Positions 6,257 through 44,444 are shown, counted from the first letter of the stretch. The stretch: 64,000 nt of DNA from Dictyostelium discoideum (GCA_000004695.1 CM000154.2:3264001-3328000), one strand, 5' to 3'. Notes: generated by a model from the sequence alone, not told the origin. Made by a program: numbers and translations.

Positions 6257-9200
6257 TTAACCAAATTTTGGGAAATAATTCATTATTGTTTTCCAGTAAC
6301 TTTCTGGATGGGTTGAACAATGATTTTGATAAAAATGTATAAATAGTGTTCTAATTTGAGTAAGTCTTTGTTTTCTTCTTTCTTCAATCTCTTTGAAACT
6401 TAATGATTGACTATGATGACTATGTTGTTCATTTATATTTGATGTTGATTTTGATTTTTCATTATTATTATTATTTTGATTTTGATTTTGATTTTGATTT
6501 TGATTTTGATTTTGATTTTGATTTTGACCAACTTTATTAAGATTATTAATTTGATTTACTTTATTATTTGGTTGATTTTTGGTATTAATTTGATTTTTTA
6601 AAGTATCAAAATATTTATTTTCAAAAGAGAAAGCATTATCCCAACTTTGAGCTAAGCAATCACTATCATTATCTTCATCATCTGAAACCAATTTATGAGA
6701 TTTATCCTCTTCAGTCTCTTCACTTTGTTCACTACCAGTGAAACTACTAGATGGATGATAATTCTTTGGAGTTGAACCACCACCACTATTCAATGAACCA
6801 ATAATTCTTTTTTCAGTGAATGAACCCATCAATTGCCAACTACCACCAATTTCTGGTTCAACTTGAATATCATCATCTGATCCTCTTCTTCTCTTTGGTC
6901 CATTTGGTACATCCATTGGTATACTCGTACCTGAAGTTGCTGGTGATGTATGTAATTGGTGATGACCATGATGACCATGATGTCCATGATGTGATTGTTT
7001 AATCATAATAGATGATGATCCAAAACTACCAGCTATATTATTATTACTATTCATTGGTGAGTGAGAAATTGGTGTTGGCGGAGCTGATGTATTATTATTA
7101 TTGGTACTATTATTGGTACTATTATTGTTAGTGTTATTATTATTATTAAAATTATTATTATTATTATTATTACCAACTTTATTCATACCAATAAATAATT
7201 TTGGAGAATTATTTTGAGGAGTTACTGGTGCAGATTGAGAAATATCAATACCTTTTGTATTCCAACTACTTGGTGAAGAGTTTTTGTGTCCACCAATATT
7301 ACTATTATTATTACTATTTGATTTGTTTGATTTGTTTATATTTTTTACATTATTATTATTATTATTATTATTGTCTACAATATTTTTTCTATCTACATAA
7401 TTATTTACAATCTCTAATGGTTGTTGAGAATTTGAATTTTTACGATTACCAGTTGGAGTATTACCTTTATTATTTACAGATTGTTGTGATTGTGCTTGTT
7501 GTAACTGTTGTTTTAGTAATCCCATACCACTATTATTTGTAGTTTGTTGTTTTTCTTGTTGTTTATCTTGTTGTTTATCTTGTTGTTGTTGTTGATTTAA
7601 TTTATTAAAAGTATGAATTGAAAAATCCATTGAAGAGATGAAATCCAAGAAATAAAAACAGAAATAAAATATATCTTCACCTTTACCAGCTCTATCACAA
7701 AGTTGATGAGAGAATAAGAACCAATCGTAGGCAACCGTTAAAAAGAGCATTTCCCAATCCTTTAAAGATTGATGAACCTCACCATCAGCCCAAAGACTGA
7801 TTCTAAGTAATGAAATAAACAATGGTGTTCTATCCCATCCAGATATACAATGAACTAATAAACCAGATGGGTTATTATCATCAGATACATATTTTAATAA
7901 TAACTTGAAATAATTTTGTGTTAAATTTACTATTAAAAAGAGAAAAAAAAAAAAAAAAAATAATAGTTAATATATATCTATTTTTTTTTTATTTTTTTAT
8001 TTTTTAATATTAATATACTTACTTAAATCCCAAGTTTTATAAGATTCCCATGGTATCATTGGTAATTGATGATCTGGATGTAAATTTAATTCTGCTGGAT
8101 CTTCAATACCATCCCAAGAATAAAATAAATCTTTTCCACAATGTTGATTTCTATTAAAATCTGCAAAAAATTCTACACCAGGATAAGGAGTAGAAGAAAT
8201 TACAAAATCTTGATATCTTCGATGCATATCAACTTTTTCTGATGAACAAACAAAGAAACCAAACCTTTTTTTTTTTTTTTTAAAAAAATAAAAAATAAAA
8301 ATAAAGGTTAATGAAATTTGTTTTTATTATAATTATTATTATTATTTATTACTTACTTTTTCTTTTTATTTTCAACCATTAAATCACAAATGTATCTAAT
8401 ATTTAAATGTTTAATAACTAGAATATCATTATTTCTAAGATGTTCCATATCTAATTGTTGTTGTGCCTGTTGTTGTCGTATTTGAGTTGACTGTTGTTGT
8501 GCTTGTTGTTGATCATGTTGGCCTTCAACATGTGAATCATGATGTTGATAATGTTGATTAATAACTGAAGAAGTCATTGTACTATCATTTTTATTTAATC
8601 TATCAATATCAATTGAATCTTCAATCATACTATTAGTAATTGGATTATTTTGATTATTATTATTATTATTATTTTGATTATTATTATTATTATTAATTTG
8701 ATTATTATTATTATTTTGATTATTATTATTATTTTGATTATTATTATTATTACTAAACATTATAGATTGTGATAAAGAAGAAGTTGTTGGAGATGGAACA
8801 GAAGAAAATTGTTTTTTCATTGAATTAACACCAGATTGAAACATATATTCAATCTTTTGAGAGAGTGTTGAGGATCTACAAAGATTTTTATGATGATAAA
8901 ATATAACTGGAAATGGGAATCTTGTTCTTACACGTGCAAATCTAGATTGATCCAATAATTTTTCTAAATTACGAGAGAGTTCTGGATGAACGTGTTTATT
9001 CTTTTCTTTACATACTTTACATCCTGTCTCTAACTCGTGTTCAATAAAAATTAAATCTGGTGGGTATGTTGCGCATAATTCACCTTCTTTATTATTGATT
9101 AATGATATTTTATAATCTTTTTCAAATAATGTATTTACAATTTCTTGATATTTAAATAATTCCTTGTTTTTTTGTTTTGTTGTTGTTTTGTTTTAAATTA

Positions 9201-10463
9201 ATTAAATAATAAAAAAAAAAAAAAATTATTTAATATTAATATATATAATTATATAATATTAATAATAATTATTTTAAACTTACTTCATCTCTTTTACCAG
9301 GGAATGGTTGTTTATATCTTCTAAAATGAGCAAACATTTCGGCTAATTCAGATGCCAATGAATCACCACATGCAAGCGAGGGGTTAACTTCAAAAGAGTT
9401 CATTGTATTGGCATCGTTTGTCGTATTATCACCATTTGACGATATATCTTCAGAGACAACTATAGATGGTTCATCATCGTCATTGCTATTGATTGTGTTA
9501 TTATTATAGGAAACGAATTCTCTCTACTTATATTGCAAGTATTATTATTACTACTGCTGTCACTATTATTATTATTGTTTTTATTATTATTATTATTATT
9601 GTTATTATTATTATTATTACTGCTGCTGTTACTACTACTACCACTACTATCGTTTTCGACAGATTTTTTAGGGGATTGTGAACAAGGTGTATTTGAAGGC
9701 TTTATTGAAGAAATTAATTGTTCTGTTGTTGAGGATGGTGGTGTGCTAGAGGTAATTACCATTTTAATGGATTTGTTTTTTTAATGAGGTGAAAGTAATT
9801 GAGCGTATTCCTAGTGTGTGTCTTTTTTTTTTTTTTTTTTTTTTTTTTTNNNNNNNNNNNNNNNNNNNNNNNNNNNNNNNNNNNNNNNNNNNNNNNNNNN
9901 NNNNNNNNNNNNNNNNNNNNNNNNNNNNNNNNNNNNNNNNNNNNNNNNNTTCAAATAATGTATTTACAATTTCTTGATATTTAAATAATTCCTTGTTTTT
10001 TTGTTTTGTTGTTGTTTTGTTTTAAATTAATTAAATAATAAAAAAAAAAAAAAATTATTTAATATTAATATATATAATTATATAATATTAATAATAATTA
10101 TTTTAAACTTACTTCATCTCTTTTACCAGGGAATGGTTGTTTATATCTTCTAAAATGAGCAAACATTTCGGCTAATTCAGATGCCAATGAATCACCACAT
10201 GCAAGCGAGGGGTTAACTTCAAAAGAGTTCATTGTATTGGCATCGTTTGTCGTATTATCACCATTTGACGATATATCTTCAGAGACAACTATAGATGGTT
10301 CATCATCGTCATTGCTATTGATTGTGTTATTATTATTATTTGGTATTATTGGTGATATTGGACTTGGAATATCTTCATTGTTATTACTATTATTATTATT
10401 ATTATTATTTACATTTGGTTCATATGATACTTTTTTAAATTGCTTTGGTATATATGTATTTTC

Positions 10464-10505
<42 letters not shown>

Positions 10506-10958
10506 GTTATTGTTATTAGTACAATTATAGCTTTCATTTATTAAAATTTCGGATTTAGAATTTAATATCTCTTCATTTCTGCTGTTGTTATTATTATTGT
10601 CACAACTATTATTATTATTACTATTATTATAGGTTTCATTATTCTCTTCTACAGCAACTGCTTCTTCTAATGTTAAATCCATCATGAAAGGAAACGAATT
10701 CTCTCTACTTATATTGCAAGTATTATTATTACTACTGCTGTCACTATTATTATTATTATTATTGTTTTTATTATTATTATTATTATTATTATTGTTATTA
10801 TTATTATTATTATTATTACTGCTGTTACTACTACTACCACTACTATCGTTTTCGACAGATTTTTTAGGGGATTGTGAACAAGGTGTATTTGAAGGCTTTA
10901 TTGAAGAAATTAATTGTTCTGTTGTTGAGGATGGTGGTGTGCTAGAGGTAATTACCAT
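6257..10958 (-). CDS. Myotubularin-related phosphoinositide 3-phosphatase (CX5R active site HCISGWDRT), at least 4 exons: complement(join(6257..7929,8023..8238,8357..9162,[gap],10113..10958))
   Basis: Recalled MTM1 shows three collinear blocks: the catalytic loop VHCSDGWDRT vs LVHCISGWDRTPLFISLL here, the upstream block CETYP...SKFRSKGRFPVLSYYH vs CATYPPDL...SRFARVRTRFPFPVIFYHH here, and a downstream KDW...F.H block. All splice junctions (GTAAGT donors at 10112, 8356 and 8022; AG acceptors at 9163, 8239 and 7930) keep phase. There are very long N/Q-rich insertions. The 5' end passes through the 100-N gap and a duplicated segment (see findings). Confidence 0.75.
9121..9840 (-). pseudogene. Variant second copy of the myotubularin exon-2 5' end + intron 1 + exon 1, carrying a ~350-bp internal deletion that breaks the reading frame (ORF 9460..9762 ends ...FPIIITQSIAMTMMNHL*)
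   Basis: Positions 9121-9500 are essentially identical to 9950-10330 and 14881-15260. The copy then jumps to the equivalent of 10690 ('gattgtgttattattatag|gaaacgaattc'). It abuts the N-gap, so it may be a collapsed-repeat assembly artefact or a real tandem partial duplicate. Confidence 0.5.
9850..9949. other. Assembly gap (100 N)
   Basis: A run of exactly 100 'n' sits between poly-T at 9830-9849 and duplicated sequence that resumes at 9950. Confidence 0.99.
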
Positions 10959-11553
10959 TTTAATGGATTTGTTTTTTAATGAGGTGAAAGTAATTGAGCG
11001 TATTCCTAGTGTGTGTCTTTTTTTTTTTTTTTTTTTTTTTTTGGTTTTTTTTTTTTTTTAATTTATTTATTATTTTTTTTTTTTATTTTTTCTATTTTTT
11101 TTTATATTTTTTATTTTATTTTTTTTTTTTTTTATTTTGGTTTTTTTGAGTTTAACTTAATAAAAAAAAAAATAAAAAAAAATAAAAAAAAATAAAAAAT
11201 AAAAATTAAAAAAAAAAAAAAAAAAAAAAAAATAAAATAAAATAAAATAAAAAAAAAAATAAAGATAAACCTGAAAAAGAGAAATGATTATTTAAATATA
11301 CCTCTTTTTTTTTTAAGATTTAATTTTATATGTATTCAATATTTTTTATTTTAAAATTTAAATATCCATTTACAAACCAATTTTCAAAATTATTATTCAA
11401 GTTATCCAATAAAAATAGGCAATTTTCAATGACTAAAAAGGAAATACCATAAAGTTAAGATAGAATTAAATACATAATTAAGGAATTGATTTTTTTATTT
11501 TTTTTTTTTTTATTGGAATTGTTTAATTTAACCTAATGTTATTTTTCTGAATT

Positions 11554-13147
11554 CTATTTAATTATTTTTACATTTTTTGAAACATAAGGTTCAATTTGAT
11601 GTTTAAAACTTGTGAAAACTTTTACTTCCTTTACAGTATTAGGAATTGAACCAATTATTAATTCTTGTTTAATATCGCCTAAACGCAACGATTCAACACC
11701 ATCTGGTAATATACCTGGTGTTAATTTTTGATTGAATCCATCTTTTAAAGTAACACGAGTTACAGTATTAGGAATTGAACCAATTATTAATTCTTGTTTA
11801 ATATCGCCTAAATACAAGGATTTAACACCATCTGGTAATATACCTGGTGTTAATTTTTGATTGAATCCATCTTTTAAAGAGACAAGAGTTACAGTATTAG
11901 GAATTGAACCAATCATTAATTCTTGTTTAATATCGCCTAAATACAACAATTTAATACTATCTGGTAATATACCTGGTGTTAATTTTTGATTGAATCCATC
12001 CAATAAAGAGACATGAGTTACAGTATTAGGAATTGAACCAATCATTAATTCTTGTTTAATATCACCTAAATACAAGGATTTAACGCCATCTGGTAATATA
12101 CCAGGTGTTAATTTTTGATTGAATCTATCCAAGAGCATTACAGTAGATGGTAATTGATTTTTTAATTTTGATAAAATATTACAATTGTCTTTGAATGCTA
12201 TACCTTCATTCTCCTTAAATTTAAATGAATCATCCTCTATATAAACATAAAACTTTGAACTATCCCCTATATTTGGTAATTAGAATGATGTAAACATAAT
12301 TTATAAAAAAAACTGTATAAAGCTTACATTTAAAAAATTTATTTTTATTTTCATCGATTTCAATTATAAATCTACAATTATCTAAGGTATAAATTGATTT
12401 TAAATTATTTTTAATATCATCAATTATTTGATTATGGAAATGAATGATTTGATTATCGTATTCATTTAATTTATTTGAATTATTGATATTATTATTATTA
12501 TTTAATACTATTAATGATTGTTGATATTGTTTAATAATTTTAATTGTATCTCTATCAATAATAAAATCTTCTCCATTATCATAAATTTGTTGATCATTAA
12601 ATTTTATAATTTCATTTAATTTTTCAATAGTTGTAGTTCTATCATTTTCATTTTCATTATTATTATTAATTATAGTTGAAAGTATTTGATTATCATTATT
12701 GATTGAAGAAGTTATAATTGTATTTATTAATGTATTATTTTCAAAGGTTGTTTCTAATTGTTTTTTAATATCTAATTCTATGATTGAAATGATATCATGA
12801 ATTTTTTTAATTTCTTTTTTTAATGAATTATTATTAATATCAAATTGTGATTGAATTTCATTGTATTTATCATTTGATTCTTGTAATATTGTTTCATTGA
12901 TTTCTATTCTTTCAATTACTTTTTGGTATATATCATTTTTAAAATTATTCATTAATGAAAGAATATTTGAAGTTGATTCTAATGGATCAGTTTTATGACC
13001 ATGATGTTCACCTTTACTTGATGTACATTGAATACAACATGGTATTAATTTACAATCTAAACAAAAGAATACTATATCTTTATTTGGGTGAAGTGTACAC
13101 TTTTTATTATTATCAATATTATTTATTTTATTATGATTTGAAATCAT
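11554..13147 (-). CDS. B-box zinc finger + coiled coil + FNIP-repeat protein (cluster copy 1), about 510 aa: complement(join(11554..12266,12328..13147))
   Basis: The B-box motif is [36 protein letters not shown]. Splice AAAT|GTAAGC...CCAAATATAG|GG runs in phase 1 and creates Trp, joining the B-box exon to ...WDSSKFYVYIEDD...MLLDRFNQKLTPGILPDG. The second exon has about 7 FNIP repeats (FNQKLTPGILPxxVKxLxLGDIKQELIIGSIPNTVT). The start is probably the M of MISNHNK (13147); the longer ORF-track start reads through promoter poly-T. Confidence 0.8.
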
Positions 13148-13494
13148 TGTGTTTGGGATTGGTGTGGATGTAAAAAAAAAAAAAAAAAATTTGGAACCAG
13201 AAATTTTTATATGAGACACCAAAAATAAAAAAAAATAAAAAAAATAAAAATAAAATCGCTTAAAAAATTAAGAAAAACAAAATCTTTTTTTTTTTTTTTT
13301 TTTAAAAAATAAATAAATAATTAAATATTTATATTGTTATTGATAAAAATTTAAAAAAAGGAAAAATATTTTGAATTCAATCGTTAATCATTTTTTTTTT
13401 ATAAAAAAAAAAGATATAATTTAATTATATATACAATGTTTTTTAAATCTCTATTTTTGGAACATTTTAATAGTAAATTAAATTTAAATATGTT

Positions 13495-13575
13495 TGCTGA
13501 CATTAATATGGCTGCTGAAATTAATATGCATGTAAATTAATATGGATGCTAAAATTAATATGGGACACACTATTG
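13495..13575. repeat. Array of 4 tandem ~17-bp units '(c)tg(c/a)(t/a)aaattaatatgg' ending in '...atgggac'; a solo terminus related to the 18706-19322 palindromic element
   Basis: The units read ctgacattaatatgg / ctgctgaaattaatatgc / atgtaaattaatatgg / atgctaaaattaatatgggac. The same motif is the sub-terminal repeat of the TIR element at 19146-19322. The array lies about 350 bp upstream of gene copy 1. Confidence 0.4.
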
Positions 13576-13906: not shown

Positions 13907-14440
13907 TTAACAGTAGTTTCTTACACTCTTTACAGTATTAGGAATTGAACCAATCATTAATTCTTGTTTAATATCACCTAAATACAACCATTCAACACTA
14001 TCTGGTAATATACCTGGTGTTATTTTTTGATTGAATTCATTCAATAAAGAGACACTCGTTACAATATTAGGGATTGATCCAATCTCCAATTCTTGTTTAA
14101 TATCGCCTAAACTCAACCATTTAACACCAACTGGTAAAATGCCTGGTTTTAATCTTTGATTGAATCCATCCAATAAAGAGACATGAGCTACAGTATTAGG
14201 AATTGAGCCAATTATTAATTCTTGTTTAATATCACCTAAATACAAGGATTTAACACCAACTGGTAAAATGCCTGGTGTTAATTTTTGATTGAATCCATCC
14301 AATAGCATTACATTTGATGGTAATTGATTTTTTAATTTTGATGATGAAATATTACAATTGTCTTTGAATGCTATACCTTCATTCTCCTTAATTTTAAATG
14401 AATTACCCTCTATATAAATATAAAACTTTAAATTATCCCC
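13907..14440 (-). pseudogene. 5'-truncated FNIP-repeat exon fragment (about 4 repeats) with a diverged 3' end (...NTVKSVRNYC*)
   Basis: It is homologous to the exon-2 / intron / B-box-exon boundary of the intact copies up to 14440. There the sequence switches abruptly to myotubularin-derived sequence. Its 3' flank is shared with the degenerate fragment at 23845-23925. Confidence 0.6.
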
Positions 14441-14543
14441 TAATGTTGATTAATAACTGAAGAAGTCATTGTACTATCATTTTTATTTAATCTATCAATA
14501 TCAATTGAATCTTCAATCATACTATTAGTATTGGATTATTTTG

Positions 14544-14594
<51 letters not shown>

Positions 14595-15392
14595 TTGATT
14601 ATTATTATTATTTTGATTATTATTATTATTATTACTAAACATTATAGATTGTGATAAAATATAACTGGAAATGGGAATCTTGTTCTTACACGTGCAAATC
14701 TAGATTGATCCAATAATTTTTCTAAATTACGAGAGAGTTCTGGATGAACGTGTTTATTCTTTTCTTTACATACTTTACATCCTGTCTCTAACTCGTGTTC
14801 AATAAAAATTAAATCTGGTGGGTATGTTGCGCATAATTCACCTTCTTTATTATTGATTAATGATATTTTATAATCTTTTTCAAATAATGTATTTACAATT
14901 TCTTGATATTTAAATAATTCCTTGTTTTTTTGTTTTGTTGTTGTTTTGTTTTAAATTAATTAAATAATAAAAAAAAAAAAAAATTATTTAATATTAATAT
15001 ATATAATTATATAATATTAATAATAATTATTTTAAACTTACTTCATCTCTTTTACCAGGGAATGGTTGTTTATATCTTCTAAAATGAGCAAACATTTCGG
15101 CTAATTCAGATGCCAATGAATCACCACATGCAAGCGAGGGGTTAACTTCAAAAGAGTTCATTGTATTGGCATCGTTTGTCGTATTATCACCATTTGACGA
15201 TATATCTTCAGAGACAACTATAGATGGTTCATCATCGTCATTGCTATTGATTGTGTTATTATTATTATTTGGTATTATTGGTGATATTGGACTTGGAATA
15301 TCTTCATTGTTATTACTATTATTATTATTATTATTATTTACATTTGGTTCATATGATACTTTTTTAAATTGCTTTGGTATATATGTATTTTC

Positions 15393-15434
<42 letters not shown>

Positions 15435-16290
15435 GTTATTGTTATTAGTACAATTATAGCTTTCATTTATTAAAATTTCGGATTTAGAATTTAATATCTC
15501 TTCATTTCTGCTGTTGTTATTATTATTGTCACAACTATTATTATTATTACTATTATTATAGGTTTCATTATTCTCTTCTACAGCAACTGCTTCTTCTAAT
15601 GTTAAATCCATCATGAAAGGAAACGAATTCTCTCTACTTATATTGCAAGTATTATTATTACTACTGCTGTCACTATTATTATTATTATTATTGTTTTTAT
15701 TATTATTATTATTATTATTATTGTTATTATTATTATTATTATTATTACTGCTGTTACTACTACTACCACTACTATCGTTTTCGACAGATTTTTTAGGGGA
15801 TTGTGAACAAGGTGTATTTGAAGGCTTTATTGAAGAAATTAATTGTTCTGTTGTTGAGGATGGTGGTGTGCTAGAGGTAATTACCATTTTAATGGATTTG
15901 TTTTTTAATGAGGTGAAAGTAATTGAGCGTATTCCTAGTGTGTGTCTTTTTTTTTTTTTTTTTTTTTTTTTTGGTTTTTTTTTTTTTTTAATTTATTTAT
16001 TATTTTTTTATTTTATTTTTTCTATTTTTTTTTTATATTTTTTATTTAAATTTTTTTTTTTTTTTTTTTTTTTTATTTTGGTTTTTTTTGAGTTAAACTT
16101 AATAAAAAAAAAAAAAATAAAAAAAAAATAAAAAATAAAAATTAAAAAAAAAAAAAAAAAAAAAATAAAATAAAATAAAAAAAAAATAAAGATTAACCTA
16201 AAAAAAGAAATGATTATTTAAATATCCCTCTTTTTTTTTTTAAGATTTAATTTTATATGTATTCAATATTTTTTATTTTAAAATTTAAAT
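14441..16290 (-). pseudogene. Segmental duplicate of the myotubularin 5' region (part of exon 2 with a ~160-bp deletion, intron 1, complete exon 1 15042..15887, promoter), fused to FNIP sequence
   Basis: ORF 15027..15887 is 100% identical to 10098..10958. Positions 14455-14640 match 8561-8760 apart from poly-AAT length. The internal deletion is at 14660 ('gtgataaa|atataactgg'). The copy contains none of the catalytic exons. Confidence 0.65.
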
Positions 16291-16630
16291 ATGTTAAAAC
16301 ACTCTTTTTTTTTTTTTTTTTTTTTTTTTTTCAAGATTCAATTAAACACTGCCCTCTAAAGGAATAAAAGTAACAGTAATGTAAGTATTAAAAAAATTTT
16401 CAATATTATGCAAATTTCCATTATACTATCCTGATTTTTTTGAAATTTCAAAAAAAAAAAATATCTTTTTACAAATTATTATTCAAGTTATCTAATAAAA
16501 ATAGGCAATTTTCAATGACTAAAAAGGAAATACCATAAAGTTAAGATAGAATTTCCCAATTAAATACATAATTAAGGAATTGATTTTTTTTTTTTTTTTT
16601 TTTATTGGAATTGTTTAATTTAACCTAATG

Positions 16631-18518
16631 TTATTTTTCTGAATTCTTTTTAATTATTTTTACATTTTTTGAAACATAAGGTTCAATTTGATGTTTAAAA
16701 CTTGTGGAAACATTTACTTCCTTTACAGTATTAGGAATTGAACCAATTATTAATTCTTGTTTAATATCGCCTAAATTCAACGATTCAAAACCATCTGGTA
16801 ATATACCTGGTGTTAATTTTTGATTGAATCCATCTTCTAAAGTGACACGAGTTACAGTATTAGGAATTGAACCAATTATTAATTCTTGTTTAATATCACC
16901 TAAATCCAACGATTCAACACTATCTGGTAGAATACCTGGTGTTAATTTTTGATTGAATCCATCTTCTAAAGAGACATTCTTTACAGTATTAGGAATTGAA
17001 CCAATCATTAATTCTTGTTTAATATCACCTAAATCCAACGATTCAACACCTTCTGGTAGAATATCTGGTGTTAATATTTGATTGAATCCATCTTCTAAAG
17101 AGACAAGAGTTACAGTATTAGGAATTGAACCAATCATTAATTCTTGTTTAATATCACCTAAATACAACCATTTAACACTATCTGGTAATATACCTGGTGT
17201 TAATTTTTGATTGAATCCATCTTTTAAAGAGACAAGAGTTACAGTATTAGGAATTGATCCAATAATTAATTCTTGTTTAATATCACCAAAAAACAACCAT
17301 TCTACGCCATTTGGTAAAATACCTGGTGTCAATTTTTGATTGAATCCATCCAATAAAGAGACACGAGTTACAGTATTAGGAATTGAACCAATTATTAATT
17401 CTTGTTTAATATCACCTAAATACAAGGATTTAACGCCATCTGGTAATATACCAGGTGTTAATTTTTGATTGAATCCATCCAATAGCATTACATTTGATGG
17501 TAATTGATTTTTTAATTTTGATAAAATATTACAATTGTTTTTGAATGCTGTACCTTCATTCTCCTTAAATTTAAATGAATCACCCTCTATATAAACATAA
17601 AACTTTAAATTATCCCCTATATTTGGTTATTAGAATGATGTAAACATAATTTATAAAAAAAACTGTATAAAGCTTACATTCAAAAAATTCATTATTATTT
17701 TCATCGATTTCAATTTTAAATCTACAATTATCTAAGGTATAAATTGATTTTAAATTATTTTTAATATCATCAATTATTTGATTATGGAAATGAATGATTT
17801 GATTATCATATTCATTTAATTTATTTGAATTATCGATATTATTATTATTATTTAATACTATTAATGATTGTTGATATTGTTTAATAATTTTAATTGTATC
17901 TCTATCAATAATAAAATCTTCTCCATTATCATAAATTTGTTGATCATTAAATTTTATAATTTCATTTAATTTTTCAATGGTTGTAATTCTATCATTTTCA
18001 TTTTCATTTTCATTTTCATTTTTATTATTTTTATTATTAATTATAGTTGAAAGTATTTGATTATCATTATTGATTGAAGAAGTTATAATTGTATTTATTA
18101 ATGTATTATTTTCAAAGGTTTTTTCTAATTGTCTTTTAATATCTAATTCTATGATTGAAATGATGTCATGAATTTTTTTAATTTCTTTTCTTAATGAATT
18201 ATTATTATTATCAAATTGTGATTGAATTTCATTGTATTTATCATTTGATTCTTGTAATATTGTTTCATTGATTTCTATTCTTTCAATTACTTTTTGATAT
18301 ATATCATTTTTAAAATTATTCATAAATGAAAGAATATTTGAAGTTGATTCTAATGGATCAGTTTTATGACCATGATGTTCACCTTTACTTGATGTACATT
18401 GAATACAACATGGTATTAATTTACAATCTAAACAAAAGAATACTATATCTTTATTTGGGTGAAGTGTACATTTTATATTATTATCAATATTATTTATTGT
18501 ATTATGATTTGATACCAT
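16631..18518 (-). CDS. B-box + FNIP-repeat protein (cluster copy 3), about 608 aa, about 9 FNIP repeats: complement(join(16631..17616,17678..18518))
   Basis: The architecture and the phase-1 intron (GAAT|GTAAGC...ATATAG|GG) match copy 1. The ORF is intact, but the usual 5' flank is replaced from 18531 by foreign sequence. Confidence 0.8.
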
Positions 18519-18705
18519 TGTGTTTGGGATTGGTGTGGATGTATTGAGAACCGGTTCTCAATCAATCGCACAACCTATTTATCAAACTAATCAAGGTATA
18601 AAAATGCAACTATAAATGTTACTATGTAAATACAACCATTCAACACTATCTGGTAATATATGTGGTGTTAGTTTTTGATTGAATCCATTTTTTAAATAGA
18701 CATGT

Positions 18706-19322
18706 GTCCCATGCCAAAATAAAACGAAACTTCATCTGTTAGTAACAAAAGAGTAAGCAGAAGAGTCAATAATTAAAATAAAAAATATTATTTTAATTTT
18801 TTTTTTTTTTTTTTTTTTTTATTTTTTTTTATTTTTTTTTATTTTTAATTTTTTATTTATAATTTTTTTTTTTTGTGAGCCGGCTAGACATAAATGAATA
18901 ATAAAAAAATATATACCAACTAAAAAAAAAAGAAATGAAAATAAATTATAAAATTAATAATAAAAATAAAAAGATAAAAATAAATAAAAGATATAAATAA
19001 AATAATATGAAAATTTTTTTTTTTTTTTTTATATTATTATAATTATTTTTTTTTAGTTGATATATATTTTTTTAATAATAATTTTAGTGCTAAAATTTTG
19101 TTTATATTTGAGATGATTATTAATTAAATGACTTTGACTTTTTTTTTTTTTCTATGCCAAAATTACCATATTAATTTCAGCAGCCATATTAATTTCGGCA
19201 GCTATGTACATGCTGAAATTAATATGGCTGCTGAAATTAATACGGTAATTTTGGCAGACGTAAGTCCCATGCCAAAATTAATATGGCTGCTGAAATTAAT
19301 ATGGTAATTTTGGCATGGGACA
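18706..19322. mobile_element. About 620-bp non-autonomous palindromic (MITE-like) element bounded by 15-bp TIRs GTCCCATGCCAAAAT / ATTTTGGCATGGGAC, with nested sub-terminal hairpins
   Basis: The left TIR is at 18706-18720, inserted into an FNIP-homologous fragment (18630-18705). The right TIR is at 19308-19322. 19143-19262 and 19265-19322 are near-perfect hairpins built from 'gctgaaattaatatgg' units. No ORF lies inside. Confidence 0.45.
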
Positions 19323-19949
19323 AATAAATAAGGAATAAATTATTTAAAAAAAATAAAAATTCTTATATTTTAATATTTTTTATTTAAATATTTATTGTAC
19401 ACCCATTATTTTTTATCATTTTATTATAGTTTTTAATAATATACAATATCATATATTAAACTATAATTTAATGTTTTAAAAAATGAGAAATTACAATAGT
19501 ATTATTTCCTATTAATTGTTGTATATTATTAAATTATAGTTTTATGTTTTAAAAAATGAGAAATTACAATAGTATATTGTGGTAAATCAATAAATTTTTT
19601 ATAATTTAATGACAAATTAATATTCAATTTTAATTAAATAATTTTAGATTTTATCAATTTTTAATTTATTAAAATATATTTTTATTATGGCCAGATTCTT
19701 TTTTATTATTTTATGATAATGTGTGATTAATTATTAATTAGAAATTGATATTAGTTTGTTAAAAATTTTATTACATTATAATATCGTTTCTTAAAATATG
19801 AGTTTTTGCGGTAGTTTAATTTCTCACAAAATAGTAAAATTTCTTAGGTTTTTTTTCTCTGGTGAATACATAATTAAGGAATTGATTTTTTTTTTTTTTT
19901 TTTTTTTATTGGAATTGTTTAATTTAACCTAATGTTATTTTTCTGAATT

Positions 19950-22900
19950 CTATTTAATTATTTTTACATTTTTTGAAACATAAGGTTCAATTTGATGTTT
20001 AAAACTTGTGGAAACATTTACTTCCTTTACAGTATTAGGAATTGAACCAATTATTAATTCTTGTTTAATATCGCCTAAATTCAACGATTCAACACCATCT
20101 GGTAATATACCTGGTGTTAATTTTTGATTGAATCCATCTTCTAAAGTGACACTCTTTACAGTATTAGGAATTGAACCAATTATTAATTCTTGTTTAATAT
20201 CACCTAAATCCAACGATTCAACACTATCTGGTAGAATACCTGGTGTTAATTTTTGATTAAATCCATCTTCTAAAGAGACATGAGTTACAGTATTAGGAAT
20301 TGAACCAATCATTAATTCTTGTTTAATATCACCTAAATACAACGATTCAACACCTTCTGGTAGAATACCTGGTGTTAATTTTTGATTGAACCTATCTTCT
20401 AACGAGACATTCGTTACAGTATTAGGAATTGAACCAATTATTAATTCTTGTTTAATATCGCCTAAATACAACAATCCAACACTTTCTGGTAATATACGTG
20501 GTGTTAATTTTTGATTGAATCCATCTTTTAAAGAGACACTCGTTACAGTATTAGGAATTGAACCAATTATTAATTCTTGTTTAATATCACCTAAATACAA
20601 CAATCCAACACTTTCTGGTAAAATACCTGGTGTTAATATTTGATTGAATCCATCTTCTAAAGAGACAAGAGTTACAGTATTAGGAATTGAACCAATCATT
20701 AATTCTTGTTTAATATCACCTAAATACAACAATTTAACACTATCTGGTAATATACCTGGTGTTAATTTTTGATTGAATCCATCTTTTAAAGAGACAAGAG
20801 TTACAGTATTAGGAATTGATCCAATAATTAATTCTTGTTTAATATCACCTAAATCCAACAATTTAATACTATCTGGTAATATACCTGGTGTTAATTTTTG
20901 ATTGAATCCATCTTTTAAAGTGACACGAGTTACAGTATTAGGAATTGAACCAATCATTATTTCTTGTTTAATATCACCTAAATACAACCATTCAACACTA
21001 TCTGGTAAAATACCTGGTGTTAATTTTTGATTGAATCTATCCAATAAAGAGATATGAGTTACAGTATTAGGAATTGAACCAATCATTAATTCTTGTTTAA
21101 TATCACCTAAATGCAACAATTTAACACTATCTGGTAATATACATGGTGTTAATTTTTGATTGAATCCATCTTTTAAAGAGACACGAGTTACAGTATTAGG
21201 AATTGAACCAATTATTAATTCTTGTTTAATATCGCCTAAATCCAACAATTTAATACTATCTGGTAATATACCTGGTGTTAATTTTTGATTGAATTCATCT
21301 TTTAAAGATACACGAGTTACAGTATTAGGAATTGAACCAATCATTATTTCTTGATTAATATCACCTAAATACAACCATTCAACACTATCTGGTAATATAC
21401 CTGGTGTTAATTTTTGATTGAATCCATCTTTTAAAGAGACAAGAGTTACAGTATTAGGAATTGAACCAATTATTAATTCTTGTTTAATATCACCTAAATA
21501 CAAGGATTTAACACCATCTGGTAATATACCTGGTGTTAATTTTTGATTGAATCCATCTTTTAAAGAGACATGGATTACAGTATTAGGAATTGAACCAATC
21601 ATTAATTCTTGTTTAATATCACATAAATCCAACAATTTAATACTATCTGGTAATATACCTGGGGTTAATTTTTGATTGAATCTATCCAATAAAGAGATAT
21701 GAGTTACAGTATTAGGAATTGAACCAATTATTAATTCTTGTTTAATATCGCCTAAATCCAACAATTTAATACTATCTGGTAATATACCTGGTGTTAATTT
21801 TTGATTGAATTCATCTTTTAAAGATACATGAGTTACAGTATCAGGAATTGAACCAATTATTAATTCTTGTTTAATATCACCTAAATACAAGGATTTAACA
21901 CAATATGGCAATATACCTGGTGTTAATTTTTGATTGAATCTATCCAATAAAGAGATATGGATTACAGTATTAGGAATTGAACCAATCATTAGTTCTTGTT
22001 TAATATCACCTAAATACAAGGATTTAATACTATCTGGTAATATGCATGGTGTTAATATTTGATTGAATCCATCCAATAAAGAGACATGGATTACAGTATT
22101 AGGAATTGAACCAATTATTAATTCTTGTTTAATATCACCTAAATACAAGGATTCAACGCCATCTGGTAATATACCAGGTGTTAATTTTTGATTGAATCCA
22201 TCCAATAGCATTACAGTTGATGGTAATTGATTTTTTAATTTTGATAAAATATTACAATTGTTTTTGAATGCTGTACCTTCATTCTCCTTAAATTTAAATG
22301 AATTACCCTCTATATAAACATAAAACTTTAAATTATCCCCTATATTTGGTAATTAGAATGATGTAAACATAATTTATAAAAAAAACTGTATAAAACTTAC
22401 ATTTAAAAAATTTATTATTATTTTCATCGATTTCAATTATAAATCTACAATTATTTAAGAAATAAATTGATTTTAAATTATTTTTAATATCATCAATTAT
22501 TTGATTATGGAAATGAATGATTTGATTATCGTTTTCATTTAATTTATTTGAATTATTGATATTATTATTATTATTTAATACTATTAATGATTGTTGATAT
22601 TGTTTAATAATTTTAATTGTATCTCTATCAATAATAAAATCTTCTCCATTATCATAAATTTGTTGATCATTAAATTTTATAATTTCATTTAATTTTTCAA
22701 TAGTTGTAGTTCTATCATTTTCATTTTCATTATTATTATTAATTATAGTTGAAAGTATTTGATTATCATTATTGATTGAAGAAGTTATAATTGTATTTAT
22801 TAATGTATTATTTTCAAAGGTTGTTTCTAATTGTTTTTTAATATCTAATTCTATGATTGAAATGATATCATGAATTTTTTTAATTTCTTTTTTTAATGAA

Positions 22901-23220
22901 TTATTATTAATATCAAATTGTGATTGAATTTCATTGTATTTATCATTTGATTCTTGTAATATTGTTTCATTGATTTCTATTCTTTCAATTACTTTTTGAT
23001 ATATATCATTTTTAAAATTATTCATTAATGAAAGAATATTTGAAGTTGATTCTAAGGGATCAGTTTTATGACCATGATGTTCACCTTTACTTGATGTACA
23101 TTGAATACAACATGGTATTAATTTACAATCTAAACAAAAGAATACTATATCTTTATTTGGGTGAAGTGTACATTTTATATTATTATCAATATTATTTATT
23201 GTATTATGATTTGATACCAT
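19950..23220 (-). CDS. B-box + FNIP-repeat protein (cluster copy 4), about 1,069 aa with about 24 FNIP repeats: complement(join(19950..22339,22401..23220))
   Basis: The B-box exon and the intron (AAAT|GTAAGT...ATATAG|GG, phase 1) are the same as in copies 1 and 3. Exon 2 is a single 2.39-kb open frame of near-identical 96-nt FNIP units. Confidence 0.8.
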
Positions 23221-23626
23221 TTTGTTTGGGGTTAATGTTGATTTAAAAAAAAAAAAAATTTGTTTTCGGAAATTTTTATATGAGACTTAATCCACCACCA
23301 AAAATCAAAAAAAAAAAATAAAAATAAAATCACTTAAAAAATTAAGAAAAAAAAAAACAAAATCATTTTTTTTTTTTATAATATTATTATTAAATAATTA
23401 AATAATTAAATATTTTTATTATTATTGATAATTTTTTGAAAAAAAAGAAAAATATTTTGAGTTAAATAATTAATCATTTTTTTTTATAAAAAAAAAAAGA
23501 TATTGCAACAAGATCTCAAAAATATCTTGTTAATACTAACATTTATTTAATTTCATGAAATGTTCTAAATTTAATTTTCAAAAAAAAAAAAAAAAATTTT
23601 TAATTATAATTTCAATTTCACAATAG

Positions 23627-23830
23627 ATATTAGATACCAGATATTAAAATGTCACACAACTTCAACAACTACAATAACATATTCAATTAGTTAATCAACA
23701 AACACAACAACGTCAACAACAACTAAATAATCACTCAACACCACCATCGTCACCTAATGTTACAACACCAATAACTTCAGCAACAATAACCAACACAATA
23801 GATATCTGGTATCTAATATCTATTGTATGA
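23627..23830. mobile_element. About 200-bp A/C-rich segment flanked by 22-bp inverted repeats (caatagatattagataccagatat ... atagatatctggtatctaatatctattg)
   Basis: The inverted repeats are read directly. The interior has retroelement-like A/C strand bias and only short ORFs. It lies in the copy-4 promoter region. Confidence 0.3.
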
Positions 23831-23924: not shown

Positions 23925-25311
23925 AATAGGAAATTCTTCTCATTCTCTGGTAGTGATAGCATTTTCTGGTAAAATATCTGGTGTTAATTTTTGATTGAAT
24001 CCTTCTAATAAAAAGATATTCGTTACAGTATTAGGTATTGAACCAATTATTAATTCTTGTTTGATATCACCTAAATCCAATGATCCAACACTATCTGGTA
24101 ATATACCTGGTGTTAATTTTTGATTAAATCCATCTTCTAAAGTGACATTCATTACAGTATTAGGAATTGAACCAATTATTAATTCTTTTTTAATATCACC
24201 TAAATACAACCATTCAACACCATCTGGTAATATACCTGGTGTTAATTTTTGATTGAATCATCTTTTAAAGAGACAAGAGTTGCACTATCAGGAATTGAAC
24301 CAATCATTAATTCTTGTTTAATATCATACAAATGCAAACATTTAACACTATTTGGTAATATACCTGGTGTTAATTTTTGATTGAATCCATCCAATAAATC
24401 GACATTCGTTACAGTATTAGGAATTGAACCAATCTCTTATTCTTGTTTAATGTCACCTAAATACAATGAACCAAGACGATTTGGTAATATACCTGGTGTT
24501 AATTTTTGATTGAATCCATCTAGTAAAGAGATACTCGTTACAGTATTAGGAATTGAACCAATTATTAGTTCTTGTTTAATATCACCTAAATACAAAGATT
24601 TAACACCAACTGGTAAAATGCCTGGTGTTAATATTTGATTGAATCCATCCAATAGCATTACACGTGATGGTAATTGATTTTTTAATTTTGATAAAATATT
24701 ACAATTGTTTTTGAATGCTATATCTTCATTCGTCTTAAATTTAAATGAATCACCCTCTATATAAACATGAAACTTTGAATTATCCCCTATATTTGATAAT
24801 TAGAATGATGTGAACATAATTTATAAAAAACTGACTAAAGCTTACATTCAAAAAATTTATTATTATTTTCATCGATTTCAATTTTAAATCTACAATTATC
24901 TAAGGTATAAATTGATTTTAAATTATTTTTAATATCATCAATTATTTCATTATGGAAATGAATGATTTGATTATCGTATTCATTTAATTTATTTGAATTA
25001 TTGATATTATTATTATTATTTAATACTATTAATGATTGTTGATATTGTTTAATAATTTTAATGGTATCTCTATCAATAATAAAATCTTCTCCATCATTTT
25101 CATTTTCATTTTTACTACTACTATTGCCAACATTATTTTGCGATGCATCATTGGTGGCATTAGTAGTTGTAGTTGTAGTGGTAGTTGAATCGATGTTTTT
25201 AAGTTTGGAACTGATATCAGAATGTTCATCAATGGATGGATGTATAAATGATTGAATTTGAAAAAGATTATCTGCTATTGGTCTTTCTTCAAGTTGTGAT
25301 TTATCAATATA

Positions 25312-25368
<57 letters not shown>

Positions 25369-25841
25369 GTTGAAAGTATTTGATTATCATTATTGATTGA
25401 AGAAGTTATAATTGTATTTATTAATGTATTATTTTCAAAGGTTGTTTCTAATTGTTTTTGAATATCTAATTCTACGATTGAAATGATATCATGAATTTTT
25501 TTAATTTCTTTTTTTAATGAATTATTATTAATATCAAATTGTGATTGAATTTCATTGTATTTATCATTTGATTGTTTTAATATTGTTTCATTGATTTCTA
25601 TTCTTTTAATTACTTTTTGATGTACATCATCTTTAAAATTATTCATTAATGAAAGAATATTTGAAGTTGATTCTAATGGATCAGTTTTATGATCATGATG
25701 TTCACCTTTACTTGATGTACATTGAATACAACATGGTATTAATTTACAATCTAAACAAAAGAATACTATATCTTTGTTTGGGTGAAGTGTACACTTTTTA
25801 TTACTATCAATATTATTTATTTTGTTATGATTGGGTGCCAT
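23925..25841 (-). pseudogene. Degenerate fifth B-box/FNIP copy: frameshifted FNIP fragments (23940..24209, 24437..24658) and a B-box exon disrupted by a unique ~230-bp insertion and an (AAT)n expansion (25300-25370)
   Basis: The B-box motif is intact at 25700-25800. The coiled-coil part is interrupted at 25090-25320, and a poly-Ile readthrough '[10 protein letters not shown]' replaces the normal sequence. Several FNIP units have indels ('gattgaatca tcttttaaag'). Confidence 0.6.
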
Positions 25842-26072
25842 TGTGTTTGGAATTAATGTCGATATTAAAAAAAAAAAAAATTAAAATTTTGTAAAAAAAA
25901 AAAAAATTAAAAAAAACACTTAAAAAATTAAGAAAAAAAACAAAATCTTGCATGGGCTATATTAATTTTTTTAATCAATCCACCAGTTTTTATTGTTCTG
26001 ATATAAAATAAAAAGGATTAAAAATATTTCTTTTTTTTTATTTATTTCCTATATACCATTTTTTATTCTTTT

Positions 26073-30569: not shown

Positions 30570-44444
<13,875 letters not shown>

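Follow-up and report, generated by a model that had tools for sequence, protein, structure and literature searches.

A tandem array of B-box/FNIP genes was analysed in a 64,000-nucleotide (nt) stretch of Dictyostelium discoideum DNA (hereafter the window), which is a chromosome-5-type sequence with a G+C content of approximately 22% and which carries the genes of the array on its minus strand. One of these genes, copy 3, has an intact open reading frame (ORF) and a conserved leader, upstream of which the promoter modules common to its paralogs are gone. With moderate confidence, copy 3 appears to be a promoter-truncated member of a young, lineage-specific array, produced by a break and its sealing by fold-back, and to be a probable nascent pseudogene. 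This reading is carried by the extent of homology upstream of the ATG, by a perfect palindrome located where that homology ends, and by the composition of the spacer between copy 3 and copy 4. The features needed for the argument are listed below in window coordinates.

16631-18518, minus strand: copy 3 B-box/FNIP gene (splicing and translation; Pfam)
18519-18543, minus strand: conserved 25-nt leader, TACATCCACACCAATCCCAAACACA in the sense orientation, the last block contiguous with copies 1 and 4 (BLAST and alignments)
18544-18561, unstranded: perfect 18-base-pair (bp) palindrome TTGAGAACCGGTTCTCAA, with arms TTGAGAACC and GGTTCTCAA (palindrome search)
18562-18626, unstranded: 65-bp orphan segment for which neither the window nor any locus compared has a homolog
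18627-18705, minus strand: 79-bp relic of one FNIP repeat unit, in frame over 21 codons as DGFNQKLTPHILPDSVEWLYL (BLAST)
18706-19321, unstranded: non-autonomous DNA transposon of the thug family, 616 bp (15-bp terminal inverted repeats, or TIRs, and small-RNA sequence matches)
19155-19256, unstranded: near-perfect hairpin in the thug element, with 46-nt arms that are 96% complementary
19264-19321, unstranded: terminal 58-bp mini-hairpin at the right end of the thug element, TIR against TIR (-28.1 kcal/mol, z-score -5.9)
19322-19864, unstranded: 543 bp of orphan AT-rich DNA with a 73-bp tandem duplication, unlike the native promoters or the FNIP repeats
19865-19952, minus strand: stop codon and conserved 3' flank of copy 4 (BLAST; ORF 19950-22211)
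13173-13417, minus strand: native copy-1 promoter, the reference state, with A18 on the plus strand (T18 in sense), a TATAAAAA box and a CTTAATTTTTTAAG block
13490-13568, unstranded: relic of a thug right end, with two ATTAATATGGCTGCTGAAATTAAT modules and the end ...ATGGGAC, approximately 350-420 bp upstream of copy 1

Copy 3 and the loss of its native promoter

Copy 3 consists of exon 1 (17678-18518, with the ATG at 18518), a GT-AG intron of 61 nt (17617-17677), and exon 2 (16631-17616, including the stop codon at 16631-16633), and splicing and translation of these coordinates gave the intact 608-amino-acid (aa) ORF that had been predicted. Two Pfam domains scored above their curated cut-offs, namely PF05725 (FNIP; 211.9 bits, 8.8e-64, six stretches) and PF00643 (zf-B_box; 33.5 bits, 4.6e-08). 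The closest relative found for the protein was DDB_G0289849, with 88% identity. This is the entry (XP_636010.1) of D. discoideum AX4 to which array copy 1 (11554-13148) is identical. The 608-aa protein and the ORF translations of copies 3, 4, and 5 and of gene X' were not found in the protein collection searched, and in the supplements of Rosengarten 2015 copy 1 (DDB_G0289849) was present in gene lists only.

To define the native promoter, upstream regions were aligned in sense orientation for copies 1, 4, and 5 and for genes C and D of the syntenic D. cf. discoideum locus (L002). All five share one layout, which consists of a CTTAATTTTTTAAG block at approximately -110, a TATAAAAA-type box, an oligo(dT) tract of 13-18 nt, and a 25-nt leader. 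The T-runs (T18 in copy 1, T14 in copy 4, and T14 in copy 5) end 23-25 nt before the ATG, and the TATAAAAA box is located at -63 in copy 1 and at -60 in copy 4, approximately 20 nt upstream of the T-run. The copy-1 promoter is conserved in copy 4 at 23246-23503, and the TATA segment is partly common to copies 1, 4, and 5. An A-run followed by a 28-mer had been described beyond the ATG in these three copies; the A-run is conserved in all of them, but the 28-mer is confined to copy 1, even with up to three mismatches allowed, with copy 4 keeping just its 3' part (aaatttttatatgagac) and copy 5 barely any of it.

Many protein-coding genes of D. discoideum have a poly-T tract directly upstream of the transcription start (PMC6161686), and a T-run of at least 8 nt was present within 150 nt at 13 of the 17 candidate gene starts in the window. 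The layout shared by the three copies and by genes C and D is exactly that of the canonical RNA polymerase II core promoter of D. discoideum, in which a TATA box and an oligo(dT) tract precede a start located just downstream, whereas copy 3 retains the leader only and has lost its T-run, TATA box, and -110 block. No T-run of at least 8 nt was found within 400 nt upstream of copy 3, and no TATAWA motif within 200 nt upstream of its ATG. Because the T-run/TATA/-110 layout is shared across species, it is taken to be ancestral and the arrangement at copy 3 to be the derived state.

The original prediction had stated that copy 3 loses homology to the other copies just upstream of its ATG, which was confirmed by BLAST and by the alignments, and had placed the limit at 12 nt, which was too short. 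The interval 18400-18543 matched 13029-13172 of copy 1 (96.5% identity) and 23102-23245 of copy 4 (95.8%), so that homology extends for 25 nt, to 18543, and, with the A-run left out, to approximately 18552-18554. Beyond this limit, the copy-1 and copy-4 promoters gave local alignment scores of 72-80 against 18544-19864, which lie within the range of 51-108 obtained from ten unrelated AT-rich intergenic regions of the window. A promoter concealed in the core of the thug element (a collinear alignment with 18922-19286) was considered and rejected; the match consisted of low-complexity A/T pairing and was no better than control intergenic DNA. Homology to the array resumes at 19865, where BLAST aligned 19865-20000 with the 3' flank of copy 1 (11469-11604, 99.3%) and with that of copy 3 (16563-16696, 97.8%). 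The claim that copy 3 has lost its native promoter is upheld, the -110 block, the box, and the T-run all being gone, whereas the accompanying claim that insertions had displaced it is not.

A related boundary was observed in D. cf. discoideum, where gene A (L002 5860-6050), which adjoins the OMT9 ortholog, is intact and encodes 661 aa; its homology to the family promoter ends at the 5' limit of the leader, where a T-run and a TATA box are both lacking. The boundary between leader and T-run may be a recurrent breakpoint in the B-box/FNIP family.

The palindromic junction and the patchwork spacer

The 18-bp perfect palindrome had been reported at 18541-18558; it is genuine, and its position is 18544-18561. 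Its left arm, TTGAGAACC(GG) (18544-18552/4), is native promoter-proximal sequence, homologous to positions 13190-13200 of copy 1 (TTTGGAACCAG), which follow the A18 run; the right arm is the perfect reverse complement of the left, and the self-complementary CCGG stands at the centre. On the plus strand, copy 1 reads ...GGATGTA-A18-TTTGGAACCAG... and copy 3 reads ...GGATGTA-TTGAGAACCGG-TTCTCAA..., and the A-run (T-run in sense) expected between 18543 and 18544 is missing. The 11-mer TTGAGAACCGG has 40 matches with three or fewer mismatches in 128,000 window positions, one of which lies exactly after the A-run of copy 1. On this alignment the A-run is deleted and native homology continues for 9-11 nt beyond it, ending at the centre of the palindrome. 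Since these 9-11 nt are homologous to copy 1, the ancestor of copy 3 had both sides of the T-run.

Palindromes of 18 bp with at least four G/C pairs per arm were observed twice, compared with 0.017 expected per window. Apart from the one at copy 3, the window contains a single GC-containing perfect 18-bp palindrome, at 40036-40053 (TACCACCAATTGGTGGTA), inside a 4240-aa ORF (31722-44444).

Repair of double-strand breaks can leave palindromic fold-back junctions, and hairpin ends, once opened, can give rise to P-nucleotide-like additions; both are known in yeast, ciliate, and vertebrate systems. The junction at copy 3 resembles them in having a perfect inverted duplication exactly where native homology ends, with one native arm and CCGG at the centre. 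It differs in that its arms are just 9 nt long and in that a longer inverted copy is at best weakly supported. The palindrome suggests a fold-back or snap-back (or opened-hairpin) repair junction.

The 1.3 kb from the palindrome centre to the 3' flank of copy 4 holds at least four further breakpoints; in all, breakpoints in the spacer were placed at approximately 18552/3, at 18561/2 or later, and at 18626/7, 18705/6, 19321/2, and 19864/5. For the orphan segment at 18562-18626 there is a weak hint that it could be a decayed inverted copy of the copy-3 leader and first codons. Alternative donors of 18553-18626 were sought among the 5' ends of paralogs (eight sequences), and none scored above copy 3 itself. 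An FNIP fragment had been reported at 18630-18705 and does exist, with a BLAST span of 18627-18705; it has 78-93% identity to approximately 40 repeat units, the best match being 21366-21441 (93.4% by BLAST), and its orientation is that of the genes. No FNIP homology was found beyond the thug element (past 19321). On this ground, insertion of the transposon into an FNIP repeat was rejected.

No target-site duplication was recognised around the thug element, the flanks being ...AGACATGT|GTCCC and GGGAC|AAATAAAT (ACATGT versus AAATAA), which fits either a subsequent rearrangement of one end or a family whose insertion leaves no visible duplication. In the orphan DNA that follows (19322-19864), two 49-nt copies (19454-19502 and 19527-19575) are 94% identical and spaced 73 nt start to start, with a weaker third copy at 19769-19817; no homolog of this 49-nt repeat was found elsewhere. 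A transfer RNA scan detected no tRNA genes, which are the targets of Dictyostelium TRE elements. The spacer is best described as a multi-breakpoint patchwork in which the promoter would have been deleted or never copied, and not as a set of insertions into an intact intergenic region.

What is left of the native promoter region at copy 3 is the leader together with the 9-11 nt or so that normally lie just past the T-run. In the favoured explanation, a break in or beside the oligo(dT) tract would have removed the tract and everything upstream of it, either while the block of gene X and copy 1 was being duplicated to give that of gene X' and copy 3 or at some later time. The break would then have been sealed by snap-back priming at the self-complementary CCGG, which would have created the palindrome, and the thug element and FNIP relic would be the remains of DNA joined to the break rather than insertions that interrupted a complete spacer. 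Transcription of copy 3 is probably weak or absent, or else depends on cryptic initiation or on read-through from copy 4, and the gene is probably a nascent pseudogene whose ORF would not yet have had time to decay. It is similar to 5'-truncated tandem duplicates in that an intact ORF lacks the ancestral promoter, its sibling copies 2 and 5 are degenerate, and the array varies between lineages; it differs in carrying no disabling mutation so far.

Alternative readings of copy 3

Several points weigh against promoter truncation followed by decay. The ORF and intron of copy 3 are perfectly intact, and the gene was called by the automatic annotation of GCA_054883475.1. Given that 5.8% of substitutions create stop codons, an ORF would stay open after approximately 14-30 neutral changes in roughly 17-43% of cases, and the intact ORF thus argues neither for nor against decay. 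The ratio of non-synonymous to synonymous substitution rates was dropped as a test of constraint because of the small number of substitutions, the family-wide values of 0.4-1.2 being high and uninformative. The fold-back model draws on the palindrome and on 9-11 nt of homology, and an alignment of 18553-18626 with the reverse complement of 18460-18552 scored 43 (null 29 +/- 6), a value reached in 23 of 1000 shuffles (p approximately 0.02), which is weak. Cryptic TATA-like sites (TTTATAG and TTTTTATAC) occur at approximately -75 to -95 of copy 3, in intergenic DNA that is very AT-rich. Because gene A of D. cf. discoideum lacks a T-run, an upstream region without one is by itself no proof of inactivity, and the loss of copy-3 transcription is a prediction. 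The order of events is a further point, as copy 3 may have been born truncated or truncated later.

Replacement of the promoter with retention of function, such that copy 3 would be differently regulated and not decaying, is the alternative that survives best, and it is regarded as possible though rather unlikely. The same doubtful standing is shared by the candidate replacements, which are the cryptic TATA-like sites at -75 to -95, the palindrome as a site for a dimeric factor, transcription that starts in the thug element or passes through it, and read-through from copy 4. It accommodates the intact 608-aa ORF and splice sites, and it agrees with the transcription of thug-S loci into small-RNA precursors dependent on DrnB and RbdB (PMC4894637), with the finding that one D. 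discoideum primary microRNA transcript reads into a downstream gene (PMC6161686), and with gene A, which lacks the T-run/TATA block and still encodes an intact 661-aa protein. Yet neither a T-run nor TATAWA lies at the usual distance from copy 3, and the new upstream DNA is conserved at no other locus. The copy-3 branch also has the most changes in exon 1, with approximately 14 substitutions (approximately 11 of them non-synonymous) compared with approximately 7 for copy 1 and 5 for copy 4; these counts are small and were obtained by arithmetic on the pairwise counts among the copies. Extra, copy-specific NKNNKNENENENEN codons are present in exon 1 of copy 3. The arrangement is found in a single lineage and so provides no evidence of maintenance by selection.

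It is improbable that the boundary simply marks the end of a gene-conversion or duplication tract, with the palindrome, FNIP relic, and thug element being old intergenic content and no break having occurred. Segmental duplication links the block of gene X and copy 1 (9950-13172) with that of gene X' and copy 3 (14879-18543), as 9950-11365 matches 14879-16292 (97.6% identity) and 11629-13172 matches 16979-18543 (94.6%), and the homology between the two blocks does stop at 13172/18543, with copies 1 and 4 remaining homologous for approximately 245 bp further, to 13417/23503. The FNIP paralogs undergo concerted evolution, many repeat units being 85-94% identical between copies, and gene A has its boundary at the same place. 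A tract end nevertheless leaves unexplained the 9-11 nt past the missing A-run that are still homologous to copy 1, as well as the coincidence of the boundary with the centre of a perfect palindrome, which is very unlikely by chance.

A decidedly improbable variant, put forward by analogy, is that copy 3 has been rewired, a transcript from 19322-19864, from the thug element, or from copy 4 running through the hairpin at 19155-19256 into the copy-3 coding sequence. If this were so, a small-RNA precursor processed by DrnB/RbdB and a B-box/FNIP mRNA would share one primary transcript, and the output of copy 3 would be coupled to the microprocessor, as an analogue of pri-mir-1177, which reads into the downstream gene.

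The original prediction itself, that a 1.4-kb complex of insertions (palindrome, FNIP fragment, and TIR element) separates the ATG from an intact promoter pushed approximately 1.4 kb away, is very improbable. A genuine TIR-bounded transposon does lie in the interval, and at 1431 bp the interval exceeds the conserved copy-1/copy-4 promoter block of approximately 270 bp. On the other hand, no remnant of the native promoter was found in 18544-19864, the distal scores of 72-80 being within the control range, and homology returns only at 19865, in the 3' flank of copy 4. The thug element lacks a target-site duplication, the FNIP sequence does not continue on its far side, and the A-run is missing at the junction, where an insertion would have left it on one side.

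An assembly artefact from reads mis-joined in the repetitive array, to which a 100-N gap at 9850-9949 with identical 387-bp flanks and a 352-bp difference from another assembly inside gene X' might point, has a negligible chance of being correct, since GCA_054883475.1, assembled independently, has 18400-19960 and the 608-aa protein in 100% identical form and so rules out a mis-join in that interval.

Loss of the copy-3 promoter beside a thug element is ordinary tandem-array turnover, and the TIR element comes from a known family; the case is of modest interest to Dictyostelium annotators and leaves current understanding unchallenged. The reference gene model (608 aa, intact) should be flagged as possibly promoter-less. 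Three adjacent paralogs that are more than 93% identical, one of them without the module, offer a natural control for the weight of the TATA/oligo(dT) module, and the array as a whole illustrates fast birth and death among FNIP/B-box genes, its copy number and layout differing in every lineage sampled.

The thug element, the array, and other lineages

The TIR element had been delimited as 18706-19322; an element with perfect ends is indeed present, and its right end is at 19321. The perfect 15-bp TIRs (GTCCCATGCCAAAAT) are located at 18706-18720 on the plus strand and at 19307-19321 on the minus strand, with a third, internal copy at 19264-19278, giving three occurrences of the 15-mer compared with 0.1 expected by chance. 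The core is an AT-rich homopolymer region and the whole element is strongly structured, the hairpin at 19155-19256 folding at -68.5 and -69.4 kcal/mol on the two strands (z-scores of approximately -17 and -16). No ORF of at least 60 aa was found inside the element, the longest being 59 aa, of low complexity and running through the hairpin region; as no ORF of transposase size is present, this copy is classified as non-autonomous.

Both thug-S and thug-T are DNA transposons of D. discoideum (Glockner et al. 2001, cited in PMC5633606). Approximately 0.1% of the genome consists of thug elements, and no relatives are known for the transposases that Dictyostelium DNA transposons encode (PMC5633606). 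The small RNAs of thug-S, miRNA_can_D3-5p (UAUGGCUGCUGAAAUUAAUGUGG) and miRNA_can_D3-3p (AUUAAUUUCGGCAGCCAUAUU), depend on RbdB and DrnB (PMC4894637, Table 2). The name 'miRNA-like_D3' used for the thug-S small RNA in the text of that paper was taken to mean miRNA_can_D3 because the latter is multi-copy in its S4 table (PMC4894637). The 3p sequence matched at 19170-19190, 19221-19241, and 19280-19300, and the 5p sequence at 19166-19188, 19223-19245, and 19282-19304, with one or two mismatches in each case. These matches fall in both arms of the 19155-19256 hairpin and in the terminal mini-hairpin, and none is expected by chance. At 19155-19256 the order and spacing of 5p and 3p are similar to those of the published loci (53 nt start to start versus 63 nt). 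The S4 table, which lists exact-match positions, does not include this locus (PMC4894637).

Because the published thug-S small RNAs match with one or two mismatches, the TIR element was assigned to the thug family; as the assignment was made by small-RNA sequence matches, the subfamily (S or T), the completeness, and the true left end are provisional. In common with thug transposons, the element has TIRs, is built of multiple hairpins, is represented by several copies or relics in the genome, and carries D3 sequences in its hairpin; unlike the published thug, it has no ORF and no recognisable target-site duplication. Rfam gave generic resemblances to long or microRNA hairpins only, below the gathering score. 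Metagenome matches to a 19-mer of the hairpin were dismissed as chance, since they consisted of 33 single-hit contigs of which none carried a TIR.

The hairpin at 19155-19256 is one more thug hairpin locus, diverged in sequence, and it could add to small-RNA counts for thug-S or distort them. Weaker still than the improbable rewiring variant is the idea that the palindrome at copy 3 could be a hairpin-opening footprint, in which case it would offer a first clue to how a Dictyostelium family of DNA transposons, with a transposase that has no known relatives, works chemically.

The window was compared with an independent chromosome-scale assembly, GCA_054883475.1 (loci L001 and L005), to which it is 99.6-99.9% identical, and with syntenic loci of D. 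cf. discoideum (L002) and of two genomes labelled D. discoideum, L006 (GCA_054859355.1) and L007 (GCA_054859385.1) (ACTFIW and ACTFIR). Neither the palindrome nor the thug element was found in L002, L006, or L007, where the arrays are shorter, differently composed, and accompanied by other transposons; given this absence and the differing arrays, the five-copy array and the junction are considered lineage-specific and young. No empty-site allele was found among the assemblies compared, the sole close assembly being identical at 18400-19960. The flanking single-copy genes of L006 and L007 are approximately 90-95% identical to those of the window, and their FNIP arrays are broken by Harbinger-like (DDE_Tnp_4) and long-terminal-repeat retrotransposon genes; the two look like deeply diverged lineages.

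The 387-bp blocks on either side of the gap (9121-9507 and 9950-10336) are 100% identical and occur once in L001, and the window probably carries a gap-associated artificial duplication of approximately 829 bp. A 614-bp block is also 100% identical between the gene X copies (8894-9507 versus 14652-15265), and the 352 bp adjoining it (15266-15617), inside the gene X' ORF, are absent from GCA_054883475.1; either a very recent conversion or a chimeric reference join around the gap is indicated.

Elsewhere in the array, the copy 1 region (11631-13417) is 93.85% identical to the copy 4 region (21704-23503), and a neighbouring O-methyltransferase falls in the same cluster as AX4 OMT9. Copy 2 (13923-14454) is degenerate and consists of just the first FNIP repeats of exon 2 joined to gene X'-type sequence. 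Copy 5 (23965-25865), also degenerate, has kept a promoter-like T-run, but exon 1, with an ORF of 188 aa, is interrupted, and no long ORF is present in the repeat region; it is nevertheless annotated as a 464-aa protein (P0006) in GCA_054883475.1. A 207-bp element with perfect 25-bp terminal inverted repeats (ACAATAGATATTAGATACCAGATAT) is located at 23620-23826, approximately 400 bp upstream of copy 4 and just past the conserved promoter, and looks like a miniature inverted-repeat element of a non-thug family. A small hairpin or TIR element is present in each of three neighbouring spacers, upstream of copies 1, 3, and 4.

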